A DNA stretch of 64,000 bases from a virus (Duplodnaviria > Caudoviricetes), in IMG/VR virus record IMGVR_UViG_3300032305_001907, positions 5,616 through 69,615 of that record. The stretch is one strand, 5' to 3'. Position numbers and translations under genes: made by a program. Positions 4,563 through 38,076 of the stretch are shown one piece after another. Below the pieces are notes generated by a model that did no database searches, was not told the origin of the DNA, and saw only the letters and a list, made by a program, of their open reading frames with translations. How positions within the stretch are numbered: the stretch's first letter is position 1; every line of letters starts with the position of its first letter.

Positions 4563-5753
4563 TCAGCGCTCCTTAGAGACGGAGAGGGGGGTTTTCCATG
4601 CGTTTTGCAGCTTGTCCATATAGGACGAAGGTGCAGACATGGGGGAGGCAATGGAAGCAACGGCTTGACGCAGTTCGCTCGTGCTGGAGTCATCACGGGC
4701 GCCAGCTTCAGCCAAGGTGTCGAACATGGCAGTAACGTAATCATCGGAACGATCCGACAGATCAGCATCACTACGAACGGCCTTGATGGAAGCTTCCATG
4801 ATTTCACGGACAGACTTGCCAGCGAAATCAAAAGCGGAATCAAGAGAAGGACGAGCTTTGTCAATGAGAGCAATGCGCTCATCAACGAGGCTGTCCACAT
4901 TCACTTGCTTGGCAGCTTCAAGATCAGCCTTGAGGCTTTCCACTTCTTCGGCAAGAGCATCGGCACGCCCTTCGGCGGAGTCGCACTTACCTTTCATTTC
5001 CTTTTGCATGGCATCCATTTCTTCCTTCATTTCGGAAGCTTTGGACATCATGCCATCGTACATTTTCTTCATGTCCTCGTAGGACATTTTGGCGTCTTCT
5101 CGTTCTTTGGTGATGGCTAGAGCTACGCTCTCGGTCACCTCAAACTCGGCGCCATCGAAATTGACTTTTGCAGTCACGGATGGTTCCTCAATAGGAGTAA
5201 TTAGAGAAGGATCGGCAGCATCTAGGCGATCTAGATGTAGCTTCACCTGCGGGCCTGCGCGGCCACGACGAACGACGGCAATGTGATTTCCGAGGATGCC
5301 TGTTTGAACACCATCGTAATTTTCACCGCTTTCTGTCACGCCAGGCGTAGAGTCGTAATTAACTCTGTAGCCAGCGCTAACCTCTTTCGCATCGCCACGC
5401 ATAATGCGTTCAATGGCATCTTGGTCGGTGATTGTCATGACGGCACGGACGAATCCATTGTCATAAACCACTTCAGTGCCACTGAAGCCAATTTGATAGT
5501 CCTTTGTATTGGCGCTATCAAGAAGGACTGGTGGATGTTCCAGAGTGATTGCTTTGCCCGCAAATGAGGCCAAGCTTTCGGGAGACGCCACTTCAGTTTC
5601 GGGACGATATTCACGCCGAACTGAACCGTCCGAATCAGTGTACATTTGTACACCAGTGCGGGCGATAGTAGACCAACACCGGAGATAGCCCTCTGGCGTC
5701 AGCTCGTACTTATCAATTGGCGCTACGTCGTAGCGAAAGCAAGTAGTGCTCAT
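4563..5753 (-). CDS. DUF2213 prohead protease-scaffold protein
   Basis: IARTGVQMY, ITLEHP, KEVSAGY, GNHIAVVRRGRAG motifs; C-terminal coiled-coil scaffold region. Confidence 0.85.
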   Translation of the reverse strand: MSTTCFRYDVAPIDKYELTPEGYLRCWSTIARTGVQMYTDSDGSVRREYRPETEVASPESLASFAGKAITLEHPPVLLDSANTKDYQIGFSGTEVVYDNGFVRAVMTITDQDAIERIMRGDAKEVSAGYRVNYDSTPGVTESGENYDGVQTGILGNHIAVVRRGRAGPQVKLHLDRLDAADPSLITPIEEPSVTAKVNFDGAEFEVTESVALAITKEREDAKMSYEDMKKMYDGMMSKASEMKEEMDAMQKEMKGKCDSAEGRADALAEEVESLKADLEAAKQVNVDSLVDERIALIDKARPSLDSAFDFAGKSVREIMEASIKAVRSDADLSDRSDDYVTAMFDTLAEAGARDDSSTSELRQAVASIASPMSAPSSYMDKLQNAWKTPLSVSKER

Positions 5754-21407: not shown

Positions 21408-22154
21408 GACTGGTGCTGGTTTTACTGGCAGTTTAATGCTGGTTTCACCGAACCAGGCCTTTCCATTGAATTGTTAAGAAATTCTGTAATTTTTTCCAAA
21501 GGATTGCTTCGCAATTAAGCTATGACTACTGTCTCATCACAAGACTCAAGCAAGACAGTGCGAAAAAGTTCTACAATAGTAGTGAGGGCACGTTGCATCT
21601 CGTCACAGTCACGAGCAGTTACTCTCCCTTCGCTGAGCCCTTCGCGAAGGAAGCCCCAAGCGATGGTTCCTAAGGGCTCCTCTCCTCCCTTCCTTTAACA
21701 ACTGCTTTCTGCCGTTCGTTCGTAAGGAAGCCACGCGCAGGAGCCCCCAAGGCGATCGTTTCCTAGGCTTCCTTTTACAATTCTTCTTCTCTTAACGAAA
21801 CGTTACGACGGAAGAGAATAACGCCCATGGTGTGGCCGTACAAGCCAGGCATTGATTTTTCAGGAAAAAGCAATATCTAGAAGGACTCAAAAAACGATCG
21901 CTGAATGACGCTCTTGGGGAGCTACCTTCGCGAGCGATCGCAAACGTCGTAGTGACCTCACTTCTACTTCGTAAACTGCTAGATCGTTCGGTCAGTTAAT
22001 ACTAATGCGCCCATCGTAAAATGTAACTGAGGGGGAACAAACTAAATGAAAAATAGCGCCGCTGCTAAAAGGGGATACCCCGCGCCCGACCGCCTTATTT
22101 TCCAGGTTACCGCTCCAGCCATCCTCGCACACTATCGGCCAGGATCGCGGAAAA

Positions 22155-22172
22155 GTTACAAAAGTTTACAAT
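22155..22172 (+). promoter_or_regulatory. Perfect HLR1 (RpaB-type) direct repeat
   Basis: GTTACAAA-AG-TTTACAAT matches (G/T)TTACA(T/A)(T/A)-N2-(G/T)TTACA(T/A)(T/A). Confidence 0.6.
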
Positions 22173-22396
22173 CGGACTGGTAAGCTATTGAAACCCTTGT
22201 TGAGAATGGTTCGCAATTGTGAGAATTGTCCCCTTCCCCCTTGTGATCGGCCGTCACTAGGACTGTCTGCCGCTTCCATGCTCGCCAGCCTGTCCCAGGA
22301 TCGCCTACAGCATGCCCGCCCATTGCCGCCCATAAAGAAACCCCCTGACCGTGGCCAAGGGGCTTCTAAGGGCTTCTAGGCTAGGCTCACTAAATA

Positions 22397-23933: not shown

Positions 23934-24300
23934 GATTGAAAGGCGGGGGGAACGTGCCGGGATCGATTCCGGCTCCCAAAGCATAAGGGGCAGTATCGCG
24001 CAACGTATCGCCTAGGTGTGCCACTGCTAAAACCGTCCACCTGGCGCAGTCGTTGCAAGGGCCTGTGATACGGGGGAGGCTATGGGAGCACTGGAGCCTG
24101 CCCGATGAATTGCCTGCCCGATAGCCTGCCATCCCGTCAAGCCAGCGCAACATTCCGTCACAATCCGCCGCCTACCATACGTTGCGCTAGTCTCGCGAGT
24201 CTCGCAACAATTCGCAACAATACGCTAGCGTTATGGTTAACATTTAAGGCAGCGGCAGTAAGCATCACCCAGCGCGGCAATCCTGGCGCCTGGCAACATT

Positions 24301-24468
24301 ATGCAAATTCCGCAAAGTAAAAAGTTGCGAATTCTGCAAAGTGAGAAGTTGCAAATTTTGCAAAGTAAAAAGTTGCGAATCCCGCAAAGTGAGAAGTTGC
24401 GAATCCCGCAAAGCAAGATTGTGCGAATTCCGCAAAGTAAAAAGTTGCAAATTCTGCAAAGTAACATT
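24301..24468. repeat. Tandem array of seven 24-bp units, each with TTGC-N7-GCAA dyad
   Basis: Consensus TTGCRAATYYYGCAAAGTRARAAG; unit starts 24301, 24325, 24349, 24373, 24397, 24421, 24445. Confidence 0.95.
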
Positions 24469-24605
24469 GTGAAGAAATGTTAAGTGAAAAGATTAAGAAA
24501 TGTTAAAAATGTTAATTTGCAAATTTTACAAAGCGAAAAGATTAAGAAATGTTAAAATAACATTATTGAGAAATGTTAAAAATAACAACATGACGAAAAT
24601 GTTGA
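24469..24605. repeat. AT-rich degenerate repeats (TTAAGAAATGTTAAAA)
   Basis: Several copies of AAATGTTAA immediately after the 24-bp array. Confidence 0.65.
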
Positions 24606-25936: not shown

Positions 25937-26203
25937 CTAAAAAGGTCCATGCATTGAACTTTGCCAACGTCGTTCTTTAGGTAAATAATACAACCATTTG
26001 GAATATTGGCCGTTATCAATTTCTGCATAAAGGTCTTCATAGCGCATCATATAGTGACATTTGATTAGAGTCTTTTCCTCAGCATCTGGGAATGGAATTC
26101 CATGGCGATCTAGCCAATCGCGCCATGTCTCGTCTAGGCGCTTTGATAGGTGAATCAGCGGCTTTGAATTTTTAAATGAATCAACCGTGTTAATGTTCTT
26201 CAT
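25937..26203 (-). CDS. Hypothetical early protein (AT-rich)
   Basis: 88-aa ORF. Confidence 0.55.
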   Translation of the reverse strand: MKNINTVDSFKNSKPLIHLSKRLDETWRDWLDRHGIPFPDAEEKTLIKCHYMMRYEDLYAEIDNGQYSKWLYYLPKERRWQSSMHGPF

Positions 26204-26319: not shown

Positions 26320-26606
26320 GCTCCTTTGCTCCATCGAACAATTGTGGCAACGATGTCATCGCTGGTTTCGTTGAAAAGCAGGCTTCCAATGGAATTGTCA
26401 TAGCCCATGATCATGATGCCGATGGTGTTTTCGCGGCCCATGAGAATACGGCCATCATCGCGCTTACGCAGCCAGGCCAACGAAGGAAGCAATAGCGTTG
26501 CACCGGGCTTGCCTTCGACGATGAAGCGAGCGACAAGGCTCAGGAGTTGATCTTCAGTGTGGCGGATGATAAGGCCACCAGCGTTGACTTTGAAAGAAGC
26601 AGTCAT
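26316..26606 (-). CDS. Hypothetical early protein
   Basis: 96 aa, first gene after a cassette promoter. Confidence 0.6.
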   Translation of the reverse strand: MTASFKVNAGGLIIRHTEDQLLSLVARFIVEGKPGATLLLPSLAWLRKRDDGRILMGRENTIGIMIMGYDNSIGSLLFNETSDDIVATIVRWSKGA

Positions 26607-26645
26607 GGTTTTGAAGAAGGGGGAAGCTCTCGCCTCGTTGAAACT

Positions 26646-26697
26646 ACTATACAGACTGGCGGCCCCGTTTCCGGGGCCCGTAACAAAACTTTACAAA
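26646..26697 (-). promoter_or_regulatory. Cassette promoter 1: HLR1-like repeat + hairpin + -10
   Basis: GTAACAAA-AC-TTTACAAA 26680-26697; GGCCCCG-GAAA-CGGGGCC; -10 TATAGT 26646-26651. Confidence 0.7.
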
Positions 26698-26996
26698 GAG
26701 TCTTTGGCGCCCACAGCTTTCAACCATTCTCCCACCCATGTGCCAGTAGTGGTGAAGCGAATGGTTTTTCCTTGGACAAGTCTACCGCCCATGTGATTGT
26801 AATTTGTAATAGTCACATCAAAGCAATCATTGCCTATCTTGATAGCATTAAGCACTTTCTTGCCATTGAAATTACGAGCAAAGCAATCAACAACTGAACC
26901 AAAATCGTGAATAGCGGAAGACACTTCAAAACAATTGCGAGGAGCAGAAACAATGCAGCGATCACCTGCGGGAAGAGTGGAAAGACAGAAAGCCAT
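26691..26996 (-). CDS. Hypothetical early protein
   Basis: 101 aa from MAFCLS. Confidence 0.55.
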   Translation of the reverse strand: MAFCLSTLPAGDRCIVSAPRNCFEVSSAIHDFGSVVDCFARNFNGKKVLNAIKIGNDCFDVTITNYNHMGGRLVQGKTIRFTTTGTWVGEWLKAVGAKDSL

Positions 26997-27038
26997 GATT
27001 TTCAAGGAAAGGAGGAAGCTCTCGCCCCCGTTGAAACC

Positions 27039-27091
27039 AATGTACATGCTGAAGGCCCCTGGAAATGGGGCCTGTAACAAAGCTTTACAAA
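27039..27091 (-). promoter_or_regulatory. Cassette promoter 2
   Basis: GTAACAAA-GC-TTTACAAA 27074-27091; AGGCCCC/GGGGCCT hairpin; -10 TACATT 27039-27044. Confidence 0.7.
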
Positions 27092-27093
27092 GC

Positions 27094-27426
27094 CTAGAAG
27101 CCGTAGTCGTACACCTTGCGATGGCCAGCGCGGAGCACGTTGCCCCTTTCGCGCATGCCACTACCTTGCAGCTTCCAGAGGCCAGAGGCTCTAAGCGTGA
27201 AGGTAAGAACTTGCTCTTCCAGGTCGTCAAGAATGCGCCATTCGGTAGGCTCAAGCACCACTGCAGCGAAACCACCAGGCTCCATTTTGGGCGCCTTGGC
27301 CACTTCAGTTTTGTTCACCCTCACCTTGCAGCTCTTAGGGGTGCGGGCAATGACTGTGCAGGGCTCCACGTCAGTCCAGAGCGCCCAATTGCACTGATCA
27401 CCAATTTGAGGATTGAAGGAGGTCAT
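27094..27426 (-). CDS. Hypothetical early protein
   Basis: 110 aa from MTSFNP ending GHRKVYDYGF. Confidence 0.65.
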   Translation of the reverse strand: MTSFNPQIGDQCNWALWTDVEPCTVIARTPKSCKVRVNKTEVAKAPKMEPGGFAAVVLEPTEWRILDDLEEQVLTFTLRASGLWKLQGSGMRERGNVLRAGHRKVYDYGF

Positions 27427-27469
27427 GGCTTGAGAAAAGAAGGAGGAAGCTCTCGCTCCCGTTGAACCC

Positions 27470-27521
27470 AATATATGCGCCAGTGGCCCTGTTCTTGGCG
27501 TTTGTCACAAAGCTTCACAAA
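27470..27521 (-). promoter_or_regulatory. Cassette promoter 3
   Basis: GTCACAAA-GC-TTCACAAA 27504-27521; CGCCA/TGGCG hairpin; -10 TATATT 27470-27475. Confidence 0.65.
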
Positions 27522-27545
27522 GCAACTGAACGGCAAATCAATGAG

Positions 27546-28406
27546 TCAGTAAATAATACCGCGCAAAATATGTGCTATGGCATCGACAGTCCATCCGTTG
27601 CCAATTGTTGTATATCGCTGTGTATCACTAATACCGCAATTAGTGTAAAGATTGGGAAGAGTTTGCAATTTTTCACATTCTTCTGGGGTAAGTTTTCGTA
27701 TTCTTCCATGTTGCAATACTCTTATTCCGTTATGGTTTGGCAAGGAAAGCGTCGGACTTTTTCTGTCTTGTTTAATTTTCCTGTTGTACACATCTATACA
27801 TGCTATATCTGGAGCATTTTCAAGGCTAATCTTCTTTAGCAATAAATTTACATTTACATCTTTAAGCCAATATTTGTCACTCGGGCTGACTTCCAATACG
27901 TCTTCAATATATATTTTTTTGTCAACAATAGGGGTTATTGGTATATTAGTCCAGTACAATCTTTCCCTATTTTGCGCACTAAAAAGATTGGAATTAATTT
28001 TAACAGGTTTGACGCCTAACTCCATGGAAATAATATCTTGCCATTCTTTTTTCATTCTCACGTTTTCAAATAAAAAATATTCGGGATTACATTCTTTCAG
28101 TAATTTGACATATTTATAGAATAATCCGCTCTTTCCATTGAATCCCGTATTGTTGCCAGCACTAGAAAATGATTGGCAAGGGCTCCCGCCCAGCAATAAA
28201 TTTATTTTTGGCAAACTTGCACTATCAATCAATCTGACATCGCCAAGCTGAATTGTATTTGGATGGTTGCATTGTGTCACTTGTATTGCATATTTATCAA
28301 TTTCGGAAGCATAATAAGACATATACTGAATTCCAGCTCGATTAAGTGCAACTTGACCGCAACTGATGCCATCAAACAAGGACAATACGGCATTAACTTT
28401 TACCAT
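27546..28406 (-). CDS. DNA (cytosine-5) methyltransferase
   Basis: LSLFDGISCG, GGSPCQSFS, FLFENV, AQNRERLYW, RKLTPEECEKLQ, IGNGWTV; visibly AT-rich. Confidence 0.92.
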   Translation of the reverse strand: MVKVNAVLSLFDGISCGQVALNRAGIQYMSYYASEIDKYAIQVTQCNHPNTIQLGDVRLIDSASLPKINLLLGGSPCQSFSSAGNNTGFNGKSGLFYKYVKLLKECNPEYFLFENVRMKKEWQDIISMELGVKPVKINSNLFSAQNRERLYWTNIPITPIVDKKIYIEDVLEVSPSDKYWLKDVNVNLLLKKISLENAPDIACIDVYNRKIKQDRKSPTLSLPNHNGIRVLQHGRIRKLTPEECEKLQTLPNLYTNCGISDTQRYTTIGNGWTVDAIAHILRGIIY

Positions 28407-28682
28407 TGGTAGCCCTCAAACAACGACCATTGGAATAACAATTGATTCAGCTCCTCGATAGATTGATTTTCGTAAGATTCATTGCCAATCATAAGCAAGA
28501 AAAGATTCGATGATAATTTTTCAATCACCAGGAAACCATTGGCGTAAGCCTCTTCCAACGTCTTAGGCAGCATCATTTTTGATTGAATTGCGTCCACATA
28601 GACATAAAAAATACTGCCAGACTGTGCATCTTGAATCTTAACAGAAGAATTGCAAAAATTCTGAAGTAAATTCCGGCTCATG
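28400..28682 (-). CDS. Hypothetical early protein
   Basis: ORF from MSRNLL, AT-rich like the MTase. Confidence 0.5.
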
Positions 28683-28720
28683 GTTTTGGAAAACGGTGGA
28701 CCTTTCGGCCCATTGAAAGA

Positions 28721-28772
28721 ACAATAGAACAAAAACAGACCGAGAACGGGGCCTGTAACAAAACTTCACAAA
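28721..28772 (-). promoter_or_regulatory. Cassette promoter 4
   Basis: GTAACAAA-AC-TTCACAAA 28755-28772; weak hairpin + T tract; -10 TATTGT 28721-28726. Confidence 0.65.
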
Positions 28773-28985
28773 GCGCTTGGCTGCTGAAACCCCGAGTAGT
28801 TGGTGGGCACCACACGCCAGTGTGTGGGCGATGCTGAGCAGTGCCTCACTTCTAAGCTACCAGCAGGCCAGTAGCTGCCTGTCACCTGCTTCATGGCCTC
28901 CAGGGCGTAGTCTTTAGCCCAATAGCGCACGTTCCATGGTGCCTTGTAGTCAATGGACAAATGAGGGAATGGTGAGCAGGTCATG
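28766..28985 (-). CDS. Hypothetical early protein
   Basis: ORF from about MTCSPF; stop lies inside the repeat motif; start approximate. Confidence 0.45.
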
Positions 28986-29165
28986 ATGAAGAAGCAATGG
29001 GAAAAGGGAATAACAATCAACCAACAATAGAAGACCATTCATCTTCATCAGGAAAGGCTTCATCATCCTCTCCAAACATTAAATAGCGATTGAGCGCTGT
29101 TTGTTCTTCTAGTGAAAGCGGAGTGCCAATCTTTTGCTTAAGAATGGCAGCAAGGATGTCTCCTT

Positions 29166-29420
29166 TCATTGTTCTGCAATGCCAGTGATCATCTCTTCAA
29201 TGTAGCTCTTCACTTGATGCAGCTTGCTGAGTGCATCTTGACGTTCTGCGCGAGCTTGATAGAAAGCATCGCTACCTTGTGGATAGTAATCTCTTCCGTT
29301 GAGCGTTGCATCGAGAAGTGTATTGATGCTTTCCTTTATTGCCTTGTAAGCAGCATAATACTCTGCCGTCAGAGTATCTTTGCTGGTGCCATTGAGGTGG
29401 ATGGTAGGAATGGTCGTCAT
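29166..29420 (-). CDS. Hypothetical early protein
   Basis: MTTIPTIHLNGTSKDTL...NGRDYYPQG pattern of small phage proteins. Confidence 0.65.
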   Translation of the reverse strand: MTTIPTIHLNGTSKDTLTAEYYAAYKAIKESINTLLDATLNGRDYYPQGSDAFYQARAERQDALSKLHQVKSYIEEMITGIAEQ

Positions 29421-29442
29421 GGCTTTTGGAAGGAACAAGGGA

Positions 29443-29494
29443 ACAATAGAACGGAGCGGGCCGTTTCCGGCCCTTTGTAACAATGCTTAACAGA
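29443..29494 (-). promoter_or_regulatory. Cassette promoter 5
   Basis: GTAACAAT-GC-TTAACAGA 29477-29494; GGGCCG-GAAA-CGGCCC; -10 TATTGT 29443-29448. Confidence 0.65.
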
Positions 29495-29867
29495 ACGCAG
29501 TCCGGCCATTGGAATAGGCGAACCATTCTTTCTTGCCTTTGCTGGCCTCCTTGCTGTTGGCCTCCCACTTCTCAGGAAGCTCTTCAGTTTCAATGCGCGT
29601 ACCAGCAGGCACTTGGATGGGGCCATTAAGGGTGGAAATGGTCCACTGATCGGCCACTGGCCCATTGATGTACCAAGCTTTGCAGACGTGCAGCAAACCA
29701 TTCATTTCAAGCTTGCGGGGGTTAGCAGCGCCCTCACGCACCTGACTGAAAAAGGGCTCGTGCCAATCAGGCAGGGTAACAGTGAGGTTGATGGTCTGGA
29801 GCCCGTTGAAGGCTGTGTAGGTGTCGGCGGTGGTGAGCTGCTCGACGGTGTGATTGATGCGGGCCAT
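29487..29867 (-). CDS. Hypothetical early protein
   Basis: 126 aa from MARINH. Confidence 0.6.
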   Translation of the reverse strand: MARINHTVEQLTTADTYTAFNGLQTINLTVTLPDWHEPFFSQVREGAANPRKLEMNGLLHVCKAWYINGPVADQWTISTLNGPIQVPAGTRIETEELPEKWEANSKEASKGKKEWFAYSNGRTAFC

Positions 29868-30143
29868 GGTTTGAAGCAGGAGAGCCTCTCGGCTCGAACT
29901 CCCCAACAATACAGCAAAAGGCCAGGAGCGCTAGCCCCTGGCTGATCACTGTTGCTTATCTTTACGAACGAGGAGGCTGAGTGCCAGCCACCACAATGAA
30001 CTGCTTGTTCGTGAACAGGGCCTGCAAGCTCCTGGCCTGTCGTTCAAGGGCTGAGCGATCTAAGCTGGTATCGAGCAGGCTCCAGGCGGAGCCAGTGCCG
30101 GACCATAACGACCATGCAAAAGGGCTACCAAGAAGAGTGGGCA

Positions 30144-30350
30144 TCACAGGTCAATGGGAGGAGGACTTAGTTTAAGCTGCTTCCTAATTTCGCGCTCTGT
30201 ATTACGCAAGGCCCTGTAGTCCTTGGTGCTTTTGCTTGTGACAAGTACGGAGCCAGTTGGATGCTTGAAGATCAAATGTTTGGTTTGTCTTACAAGAGCG
30301 TAGCCGTACCTTTTTGCTAGTTTAAGGATTTCCTTGTTGGCATCTTTCAT
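30144..30350 (-). CDS. HicA-like (dsRBD-fold) toxin-like protein
   Basis: EILKLAKRYGYALVRQTKHLIFKHPTG pattern with the conserved His; no HicB-like neighbour. Confidence 0.55.
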   Translation of the reverse strand: MKDANKEILKLAKRYGYALVRQTKHLIFKHPTGSVLVTSKSTKDYRALRNTEREIRKQLKLSPPPIDL

Positions 30351-30526
30351 GATTGGTGGCCGTAGGTAAGGTGACAATACTTGGCCGGATGCAAGTTGAG
30401 GCAATGGAGAAGAGCTTGGTCGTTTTTCTTCTGAGGAGAAGCGAAGGCAATGGCTGCTGCAATTAGCAGGAGATAACCAATGCCTAAGCCAGTGGCAATT
30501 ATGCGTTGCATGACAGAACAATGAAA

Positions 30527-30802
30527 TTAGAAGAAAACGTGCTGACCATTGGCCTGAATGCTGATCACACGCTCAGTATCAAACGAGCGCCATGCAGCAT
30601 TGCCTGCTTTTGCTTGGCGGAAATCACGGCAGCGGATGATGGAAGCCTTCGTAGTAGGCGAGCCAGTTCCTTTGATTTCCTGGCGGTCGCGAGGGTTAAA
30701 CTGGACGGAGCGAAGGCTGCCGTCAAGCTTGACAAAATTCACAGAGACGATGCTGCTGCCAGCGTTGTCGATGAACTTGCGGATGAAGGAGGTCTTGTCC
30801 AT
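30527..30802 (-). CDS. WYL_2/DUF2693-like SH3 beta-barrel protein
   Basis: VNFVKLDGSLR and AWRSFDTERV motifs. Confidence 0.6.
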   Translation of the reverse strand: MDKTSFIRKFIDNAGSSIVSVNFVKLDGSLRSVQFNPRDRQEIKGTGSPTTKASIIRCRDFRQAKAGNAAWRSFDTERVISIQANGQHVFF

Positions 30803-30840
30803 GGGAAAAAGTAGAGGAGGGCGTCGCTGCCCATGAGAGA

Positions 30841-30892
30841 AGAATACCAGAAAAGGGGGCCTTGCGGCCCCACTGTCACATTTCGTAACAAA
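30841..30892 (-). promoter_or_regulatory. Cassette promoter 6 (with intrinsic terminator)
   Basis: GTCACATT-TC-GTAACAAA 30875-30892; GGGGCC-GCAA-GGCCCC-CTTTTCT; -10 TATTCT 30841-30846. Confidence 0.65.
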
Positions 30893-33614: not shown

Positions 33615-33685
33615 AGTCAAACGACATGCACAAAAGTGCATTTCCCGGACGGGATCGGCAAAACCGACTTGTAAAGCATAGCAAT

Positions 33686-33707
33686 AAAAAAGGGGGCTGT
33701 TGCCCCC
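33686..33707 (-). terminator. Intrinsic terminator after rlpA
   Basis: GGGGGC-AACA-GCCCCC followed by TTTTTT. Confidence 0.75.
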
Positions 33708-36406: not shown

Positions 36407-37120
36407 TCAAGCCTCTTCAACGGCAGCCGATTCCATGGAAGAAGCTTCAATGGCCCCAGCGTTGGCTTCCCGGTCTTTGATGTCGCCCACGGTCTTGGCA
36501 AGGTCATCCAGGAAGGTTTTGTAATCCTTCTTGTCTTCTGGCTGCGGATGGAGACCATGAAGCCCTAGAAGCTTGGCTTGTTCGACTAGACAGTTCTTGG
36601 CCACGTTCAGGAAAGAGGAGTCACCAGCAATGGTTTCCGTTCTAATGATGGACGATTCTTCGTCGGCATCTTTGGAAGCAGAAGTGGTGACAATACGCTT
36701 AATGCGACTTTCCTGGAAGCTATTCATTGCAATATTCTTCAGTTCCATTTGTTCCTTGAGGAGCCTGGCACGATGTACATCAGCGCTTTTAAGGATTTCT
36801 TCAGTGTAGAGCTTACGAATTTCGTTACGGTCAGTGCTTACTGTTTCCTTGCTCAAGTTGAGCACATTAGCGATTTGCCTATTGCTTAGACTTGCGGCAA
36901 GAAGCTCTGCTGTCATGTGACGACGATGGCCAACAGTTTCTTTGTTGTATGGAATCTTACCGGGACCAACACCCACTTCATTACGAATGCGATCAATTTG
37001 CTTGATGCTGAAGCCAGCTTCCAGCAAGGTTTTCACGCCATAGTTAAGTTCTTCCTCAGGCGATGGGAAAGAGATTTCGGGCTTAGCCATAACAACCACT
37101 GTTTGCCCCCATTGTATCAC
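36407..37120 (-). CDS. HTH protein, candidate terminase small subunit
   Basis: LSNRQIANVLNLSKETVSTD HTH followed by helices ending QAKLLGL, a TerS-like layout. Confidence 0.5.
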   Translation of the reverse strand: MIQWGQTVVVMAKPEISFPSPEEELNYGVKTLLEAGFSIKQIDRIRNEVGVGPGKIPYNKETVGHRRHMTAELLAASLSNRQIANVLNLSKETVSTDRNEIRKLYTEEILKSADVHRARLLKEQMELKNIAMNSFQESRIKRIVTTSASKDADEESSIIRTETIAGDSSFLNVAKNCLVEQAKLLGLHGLHPQPEDKKDYKTFLDDLAKTVGDIKDREANAGAIEASSMESAAVEEA

Positions 37121-37999: not shown

Positions 38000-38047
38000 T
38001 GGCCAACAACGAAGAACTTTTCTCGGGGCGGCTGGTGCCGCCTGCTG

Positions 38048-38076
38048 ACTATAGAAGAAATAAAGCCAGTGGTCAA
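38048..38076 (-). promoter_or_regulatory. Sigma70-type promoter
   Basis: TTGACC-17 bp-TATAGT. Confidence 0.75.

Follow-up and report, generated by a model that had tools for sequence, protein, structure and literature searches.

The stretch of DNA analyzed here (hereafter, the window) comprises 64 kb of a 69.6-kb IMG/VR virus record (IMGVR_UViG_3300032305_001907; positions 5,616 to 69,615) that is about 95% complete. The portal and primase-helicase proteins encoded in it are 63% and 55% identical, respectively, to their counterparts from the Synechococcus siphovirus S-CBS4, and the two genomes have the gene order in common; by these similarities, the virus is an S-CBS4-like cyanosiphovirus; the initial annotation of the window, made from the sequence without database searches, had likewise treated it as a cyanosiphovirus. 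Contigs related to this virus come from lake metagenomes and carry the same sample numbers as Cyanobium metagenome-assembled genomes. Given the relationship to S-CBS4 and the lake origin of the related contigs, the host is most likely a freshwater or estuarine picocyanobacterium. The subject of this analysis is a set of seven short promoter-like cassettes located within 4.3 kb on the minus strand of the window, each including an 18-nt direct repeat (hereafter, the box) that resembles HLR1, the binding site of RpaB, the light/redox master regulator of cyanobacteria. All cassette genes are encoded on the minus strand, in the block that extends from the primase-helicase gene (40950) to the ribonucleotide reductase gene (~18200). 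Searches of the cassette genes against Pfam, PHROGs and a protein atlas reveal no function apart from that of a C5 DNA methyltransferase. Because these genes are ORFans plus this single methyltransferase, the labels "early" and "host-takeover" that had been attached to them are unsupported.

The cassettes consist of the same parts in the same order, namely (along the minus strand) the 18-nt box, a GC-rich spacer, a -10 hexamer of the form TAnnnT, a leader and an ATG. At six of the sites, the box has the form TTTGTnAAGnTTTGTnAC, a direct repeat with two 8-nt halves separated by 2 nt (8-2-8); the gap between box and hexamer is 28 nt in five cassettes, 29 nt in one and 39 nt in the seventh. The hexamers at these six sites are TATAGT, TACATT, TATATT, TATTGT (twice) and TATTCT, and the leaders are 22-43 nt long. 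Six of the seven cassettes contain a hairpin in the spacer. A consensus scan detects no sigma-70 -35/-10 pair at any cassette, and the hairpin sits at the -35 position. In four cassettes, the stop codon of the upstream gene falls within the box (TAA at 26691-26693, TGA at 28766-28768, TAA at 29487-29489 and TGA at 30876-30878). The six boxes, the four embedded stop codons and the replacement of the -35 region by a hairpin had all been pointed out in the initial annotation and are found as described there; the distance of 29-30 bp that it gave from box to hexamer is the same distance counted differently. All six cassettes that it listed are real, but the count was one short, and the conserved stem-loop in the 5' untranslated region had been missed along with the seventh cassette.

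Cassette 1 (26604..26697) includes a box at 26680-26697, a hairpin in the spacer at 26652-26679, the hexamer TATAGT at 26646-26651, a leader stem-loop at 26607-26645 and an ATG at 26606, which starts a 96-aa gene with small genes downstream. In cassette 2 (26994..27091), the box (27074-27091) is followed by a 29-nt spacer with a hairpin, TACATT at 27039-27044, a leader stem-loop at 26997-27038 and the ATG of a 101-aa gene at 26996. Cassette 3 (27424..27521) has its box at 27504-27521, no significant hairpin, TATATT at 27470-27475, a leader stem-loop at 27427-27469 and an ATG at 27426 that starts a 110-aa gene. Cassette 4 (28679..28772; box 28755-28772) contains a weak hairpin with a U-tract, TATTGT at 28721-28726, a leader stem with a GAAA loop (28682-28720) and an ATG at 28681; it precedes a 93-aa gene and the C5 cytosine methyltransferase gene (27546-28406). 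Cassette 5 (29418..29494; box 29477-29494, hairpin in the spacer 29449-29476, TATTGT at 29443-29448, ATG at 29420) differs in having a short leader of 22 nt without a stem-loop and is followed by three genes, 29420-29166, 29169-29017 and 28984-28766. Cassette 7, the additional one (29865..29968), combines a degenerate box at 29951-29968 with a 39-nt spacer that holds the strongest hairpin and a U-tract, TATTGT at 29906-29911, a leader stem-loop at 29868-29905 and an ATG at 29867, the start of a 126-aa gene. Finally, cassette 6 (30800..30892) includes a box at 30875-30892, a hairpin with a U-tract in the spacer 30847-30874, TATTCT at 30841-30846, a leader stem-loop at 30803-30840 and an ATG at 30802, with a 91-aa gene (30527-30802) and then small ORFs.

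The spacer hairpins of cassettes 1, 2, 5 and 6 are strong (-14 to -17.5 kcal/mol), that of cassette 4 is moderate (-9.3) and that of cassette 3 is not significant (-6.0, z -0.3), in agreement with the four strong and two weak hairpins noticed initially; the hairpin of cassette 7 is the strongest (-23.1 kcal/mol). A U-tract follows the hairpin in only three of the seven cassettes (4, 6 and 7), and cassettes 1, 2 and 5 have strong stems without it. These three (cassettes 4, 6 and 7) are candidate intrinsic terminators, and the role of those that lack the U-tract may be limited to stabilization of a 3' end. Since the inferred start site is downstream of the spacer hairpin, the hairpin can be transcribed only as the 3' end of the RNA of the upstream gene. 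The leader stem-loop, present in six of the seven cassettes, has a 5-bp stem located about 12 nt past the -10 hexamer and a GAGA, GAAA or GCGA-type (GNRA-like) tetraloop. Among 16 cassettes from the window and its relatives, compensatory changes are found at all five pairs of this stem; one pair, for example, is CG in 8 sequences and GC in 6. The leader stem-loop has no match in Rfam, and an Rfam scan of the 20-42 kb region assigns the cassettes to no known RNA family. The cassette ATGs lack a preceding Shine-Dalgarno sequence; AAAACC is frequent ahead of them.

The published RpaB site, HLR1, consists of two imperfect 8-nt direct repeats (G/T)TTACA(T/A)(T/A) that are 2 nt apart (KTTACAWW-N2-KTTACAWW). 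HLR1 sites centered between -66 and -45 (with a peak near -51) activate transcription, and those that overlap the core promoter repress it; under the published model, phosphorylated RpaB (RpaB~P) activates in low light and binding is lost in high light. The phage boxes correspond to the reverse complement of HLR1, with 1, 1, 2, 2, 3 and 2 mismatches in the six boxes (three in cassette 5), so the original description of the box as HLR1-like holds. The phage box pattern has 6 matches in the window against 0.71 expected, and none of 100 shuffles reaches 6; the canonical HLR1 consensus with at most 2 mismatches has 9 matches against 1.2 expected, again with as many in 0 of 100 shuffles. A further count with the HLR1 consensus gives 13 matches against 1.4 expected, so that the enrichment is 7-fold or more. 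With the hexamer assumed to occupy -12 to -7, the box is centered at -49.5 in the class with the 28-nt gap, where it spans -58 to -41, and at about -61 in the class with 39-42 nt. A matrix was made from 23 distinct boxes that had been selected beforehand by their similarity to HLR1. It shows two copies of G-T-n-A-C-A-A-W at a 10-bp period, in direct rather than palindromic arrangement, and its best-conserved columns include G1, C5, C10 and C15. The box fits the published HLR1 definition, with a caveat at position 3 of the half-site that is considered below. A direct repeat with a 10-bp period is the signature of tandem binding by OmpR-family regulators, and a search of the phage genome detects no OmpR-type winged-helix domain at E<=1.

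Several other identities of the box can be rejected. NtcA sites (GTA-N8-TAC) and CRP-type palindromes, compared by eye, have the wrong spacing, and the box is a direct repeat. The Pho box, the site of PhoB, is made of 8-nt repeats with an 11-bp period and a CTTAACCT-like half-site, and is ruled out by the 10-bp period and the KTnACAAW half-site seen here. Nor is the box the U-tract of a terminator: relative to the hairpin it is on the 5' side in the coding strand, the opposite strand reads A-rich, and in relatives the box is found at hairpin-less -35/-10 promoters as well.

The same cassettes are present in eleven IMG/VR loci whose helicases are 64-80% identical. A motif search in related phages, proposed in the initial annotation as a check, finds the box at a distance of 28-29 or 39-42 nt and in one orientation. 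Specifically, in the window and six related loci, 31 reverse-oriented HLR1 matches lie upstream of a TAnnnT hexamer followed by an ATG, of which 18 are at 28-29 nt and 6 at 39-42 nt; forward-oriented matches in the same loci yield no offset peak. A search that ignored the box and required only a hairpin, a TAnnnT hexamer and an ORF finds the box again in the same position most of the time. In some relatives, the box is located 5 nt upstream of promoters of the form TTGACA-17-(-10), its position relative to the -10 hexamer unchanged. Together, the offset peaks, the box-blind recovery and the occurrence at TTGACA-17-(-10) promoters indicate that the box is tied to promoters, with helical phasing, rather than to hairpins. 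At the 28-29 nt position, the HLR1 of several relatives is canonical and perfect. The promoter of cassette 5 has orthologs in about 17 further contigs, in which the box is kept upstream of one orthologous gene as its sequence drifts within the consensus. A scan of IMG/VR with the exact box returns 114 matches, about 17 of which are true cassettes of related siphoviruses; most of the 114 come from a coding sequence that is conserved in an unrelated group of phages. The first 50 kb of the Aphanizomenon phage CL131 are too AT-rich for cassettes to be judged. Dense TTGTAAC/GTTACAA repeat arrays occur in one intergenic region of unrelated viral contigs from sample 3300045988 (L346, L349, L361, L366 and others), which may represent another phage with HLR1-like half-site arrays.

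Likely host genomes were compared with the phage. In five freshwater Cyanobium/Synechococcus genomes, canonical HLR1 sites lie over the -10 of the hli genes, i.e., in the repressed class. In the same host group, the promoters of psaA (loci L190, L141, L155 and L181), psaD (L254-L258) and psaI-psaL (L266-L270) contain conserved 18-mers fixed at 30, 40 and 40 nt, respectively, from the -10, and the spacers are variable, GC-rich and devoid of a -35. The architecture of the host photosystem I promoters is the same as that of the phage cassettes, mostly with the same orientation. The psaA and psaI promoters have in common a distal element, GGATTGAAC, that is not a canonical HLR1 half-site. Judging by the HLR1 sites at their hli genes, the likely hosts, as identified by the relationships above, possess and use the RpaB-HLR1 system. 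In silico, the helical phasing of the phage box and its position relative to the predicted start site would fit the activation class of RpaB sites.

Taken together, these observations make it somewhat more probable than not that the cassettes are RpaB-activated terminator-promoter-leader units. Under this hypothesis, the box would be an HLR1 site to which RpaB, a host response regulator of the OmpR family, binds as a tandem dimer, and phosphorylated RpaB located near -50 or -61 would recruit the host RNA polymerase, as it does at photosystem I promoters, and would therefore compensate for the absent -35. The cassette genes would be on at low or moderate excitation pressure in the host, and their transcription would fall once RpaB is dephosphorylated and released in high light or under reducing conditions. 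The spacer hairpin would end or stabilize the upstream transcript, and the 5' stem-loop would stabilize the new one. Given the multiple copies of the putative RpaB site at promoters that lack a -35, part of the phage program is probably tied to the photosynthetic state of the host. The cassettes had initially been called light-gated; by the published RpaB model, the proper wording is that they would be gated by excitation pressure or redox state, being on when the pressure is low and off under high-light or reducing stress.

A number of observations weigh against this hypothesis. Position 3 of HLR1 (T) is free in both half-sites of the phage boxes, with A, C and T about equally represented, and a C in the spacer is conserved instead; the matrix that shows this was built from boxes chosen for their likeness to HLR1. 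Multi-copy use of the box is specific to the S-CBS4-like lineage. S-CBS4 itself holds one or two cassettes, of which a single one is clear (upstream of gp104, with 41-nt spacing), and the unrelated cyanosiphoviruses S-CBS1 and S-CBS3 are essentially free of cassettes, with at most one weak candidate. On the host side, the photosystem I boxes match HLR1 only in part, and those of psaE and psaF have the opposite orientation. The phage-type layout (two strong halves, 27-30 nt and TAnnnT) has no matches in 101 Cyanobiaceae genomes, and the phage consensus is not enriched in the five host genomes (35 matches against 57 in the control). The host itself is a presumed one, assigned by the relationship to S-CBS4 and by the lake-metagenome relatives. 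Finally, a helix-turn-helix (HTH) protein of the LuxR/GerE type is encoded upstream of the cassettes in the same strand block; it is discussed below with the phage-encoded activators.

Other elements of the window bear on these questions. A perfect canonical HLR1 is located at 22155-22172 on the plus strand, at the 3' end of a small conserved plus-strand ORF (~22047-22184); its second half contains TACAAT, the layout of the RpaB-repressed host hli promoters, read on the plus strand. The ORF at 22188-22379, downstream of this site, does not correspond to hli and is unlikely to be a real gene. The orthologous box of relatives precedes, by 5 nt, a promoter on the opposite strand (TTGACA-17-TAGTAC). 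On the minus strand, the region 24290-24600 contains seven tandem TTGC-N7-GCAA dyads (24290-24470) of about 24-26 bp; five TTAACATTT repeats similar to HLR1 half-sites come next. This array looks like an origin or an operator array, and the apparent 76-aa ORF that overlaps it is probably not a gene. At 33676-33707 (minus strand), the HNH-helicase operon is preceded by a terminator hairpin, an extended -10 (TGcTATGCT) and, after it, a conserved leader; the relatives keep the TGn extended -10 at this operon without a box, so the phage has a second type of promoter. Inside the replication-gene block, a near-consensus sigma-70 promoter (TTGACC, 17 nt, TATAGT) at 38047-38075 (minus strand) is a candidate activator-independent early promoter.

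The cassettes also mark sites of genome rearrangement. A close relative, the contig L077, is 80-93% identical to the window at the nucleotide level and runs from the homolog of position 29011 straight into box 1, without the intervening 2.3 kb in which cassettes 2-4 and the methyltransferase gene reside. Within hairpin 1, at a microhomology of 9 nt, the L077 sequence then continues in a different hairpin, one that precedes the gene at 26203. By this comparison, the box and hairpin of cassette 1 are a recombination breakpoint. In L077 (positions 1560-1700), the deletion between two hairpins has left a "dead" cassette, a box and hairpin without a -10, that is still a terminator-like element. In the window, about 100 nt of near-identical sequence are common to cassettes 1-3. 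The notion of self-contained terminator-promoter modules put forward in the initial annotation is supported in silico, the cassettes marking indel boundaries in the manner of T4-type elements; a U-tract is present at only three of the seven hairpins.

According to the principal competing explanation, it is a phage-encoded activator that recognizes the box, the cassettes being middle-type promoters such as those served by MotA in T4, and the likeness of the box to HLR1 is a coincidence or mimicry without RpaB. The restriction of the multi-copy motif to the S-CBS4-like lineage, the lack of enrichment of the phage consensus in host genomes and the variability of HLR1 position 3 all speak for such an activator, and the canonical and extended -10 promoters found elsewhere in the window could serve the earliest genes. 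The candidates are an ORFan or the LuxR/GerE-type HTH protein mentioned above (36407..37120, minus strand, 237 aa), which shows weak matches to NarP, PedR and sigma region 4. (Its S-CBS4 homolog gp086 and PHROG 645 are labeled "RNase E", which looks like a misannotation.) However, inverted repeats are the usual targets of LuxR-type HTH dimers, and the array of seven TTGC-N7-GCAA dyads (24290-24470) is a better fit as the more natural target of this protein. Moreover, the box is a strict 10-bp direct repeat of the kind characteristic of the OmpR family, of which the phage encodes no domain, and in half-site, geometry and position alike the box agrees with the sites of the host regulator. A phage activator is considered doubtful. 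It is also possible that the box is a generic upstream enhancer that confers constitutive strength, either an A/T-rich element resembling the UP element, contacted by the alpha subunit of RNA polymerase, or a site for another host OmpR-family protein, e.g., RpaA. The box is about 70% A+T at -58 to -41, where UP elements lie, and in relatives is also found upstream of complete -35/-10 promoters. The UP element consensus of E. coli, however, consists of A/T tracts at -59 to -38 with no specific requirement for G or C, whereas in the box it is G1, C5, C10 and C15 that are conserved, at a 10-bp period. This pattern and the strict orientation argue against an UP element, and perfect HLR1 sites occupy the same place in relatives. 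On balance, a generic enhancer seems quite improbable.

A further explanation assigns the cassettes mainly a DNA-level role, as recombination modules that shuffle ORFans or as RpaB decoys that titrate the regulator, with promoter activation secondary or absent. The two segments missing from L077 have their ends precisely at box 1 and hairpin 1, the junction bears the 9-nt microhomology, and the remaining box and hairpin have no -10; the near-identity of cassettes 1-3 over about 100 nt points the same way. Both the constant distance to a conserved -10 and the conservation of the leader nevertheless argue for transcription as the selected function, and recombination at the cassettes does not conflict with their being repeated promoters and is probably a side effect of it, so this explanation is regarded as very improbable. 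A somewhat different decoy scenario, still unlikely, would operate on top of HLR1-driven accessory transcription that follows excitation pressure: as the genome replicates, its many strong HLR1 copies (those of the seven cassettes plus the perfect site at 22155 and the array of half-sites near 24500) would drain RpaB~P. In this phage lineage, which has no psbA or hli of its own, the host would thereby be pushed to a state like that in high light, with more hli and psbA and less photosystem I, and no photosynthesis gene would have to be supplied by the phage. With these alternatives weighed, RpaB-activated cassettes remain the reading favored here.

Capture of a host response regulator and cassettes of the promoter-early stem-loop (PeSL) type are each already known in kind. 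Host PhoB control of cyanophage genes was reportedly the subject of earlier work on P-SSM2. Genes of the cyanophage S-PM2d are under the control of the host PhoBR two-component system via pho boxes (ISME J 2024, PMC10976474). As in that case, several promoters of the present phage appear to carry sites of a host OmpR-family regulator, and phage transcription is predicted to follow a host environmental sensor; the differences are that the signal here would be light/redox rather than phosphate, that the phage is a siphovirus and not a T4-like myovirus, and that the putative sites are built into repeated, portable cassettes. PeSL cassettes have been described in T4-like myoviruses (PMC2839356, PMC4122927). 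Like them, the elements described here are small composite terminators/promoters repeated among ORFans in a plastic region, and indels in relatives end at them; unlike PeSLs, which combine a stem-loop with a sigma-70-type early promoter, they have the stem-loop inside the promoter in place of the -35, with an activator-type box added upstream, and they belong to a cyanobacterial siphovirus. The likeness to the activating HLR1 sites of the RpaB (Hik33/NblS-RpaB) regulon, those of the photosystem I genes, includes the 8-2-8 KTTACAWW-type repeat, a predicted center within -66 to -45 and the lack of a good -35. In the phage, by contrast, the sites precede non-photosynthetic ORFans, both half-sites are strong, position 3 is free with the spacer C conserved, and a terminator-like hairpin separates the box from the -10. 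Earlier cyanophage HLR1 cases reportedly involve phage copies of high-light genes (hli, psbA) and belong to the repressed class; they differ from the present ones, which are in the predicted activating position upstream of seven unrelated genes. HLR1 motifs in cyanophage genomes are mentioned in Riediger et al. 2019 (PMC6525291). The novelty suggested initially for cyanosiphoviruses therefore applies to the arrangement, for which no description was found in the literature, and not to HLR1 in cyanophages as such.

Light control of cyanophage infection is a long-standing question that has been studied mostly in T4-like phages with photosynthesis genes. The cassettes extend PeSL-like modular shuffling beyond the T4 superfamily, and, as compact natural parts that combine an activator site, a terminator, a -10 and a stabilizing leader, they could be used as tunable picocyanobacterial promoters. 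If RpaB does not bind the boxes, they are a lineage-specific promoter motif of ordinary interest. If it does, a siphovirus would read the photosynthetic redox sensor of its host directly at seven promoters, and the single well-documented use of a host two-component regulator by cyanophages, that of PhoB, would be extended to the light/redox axis.

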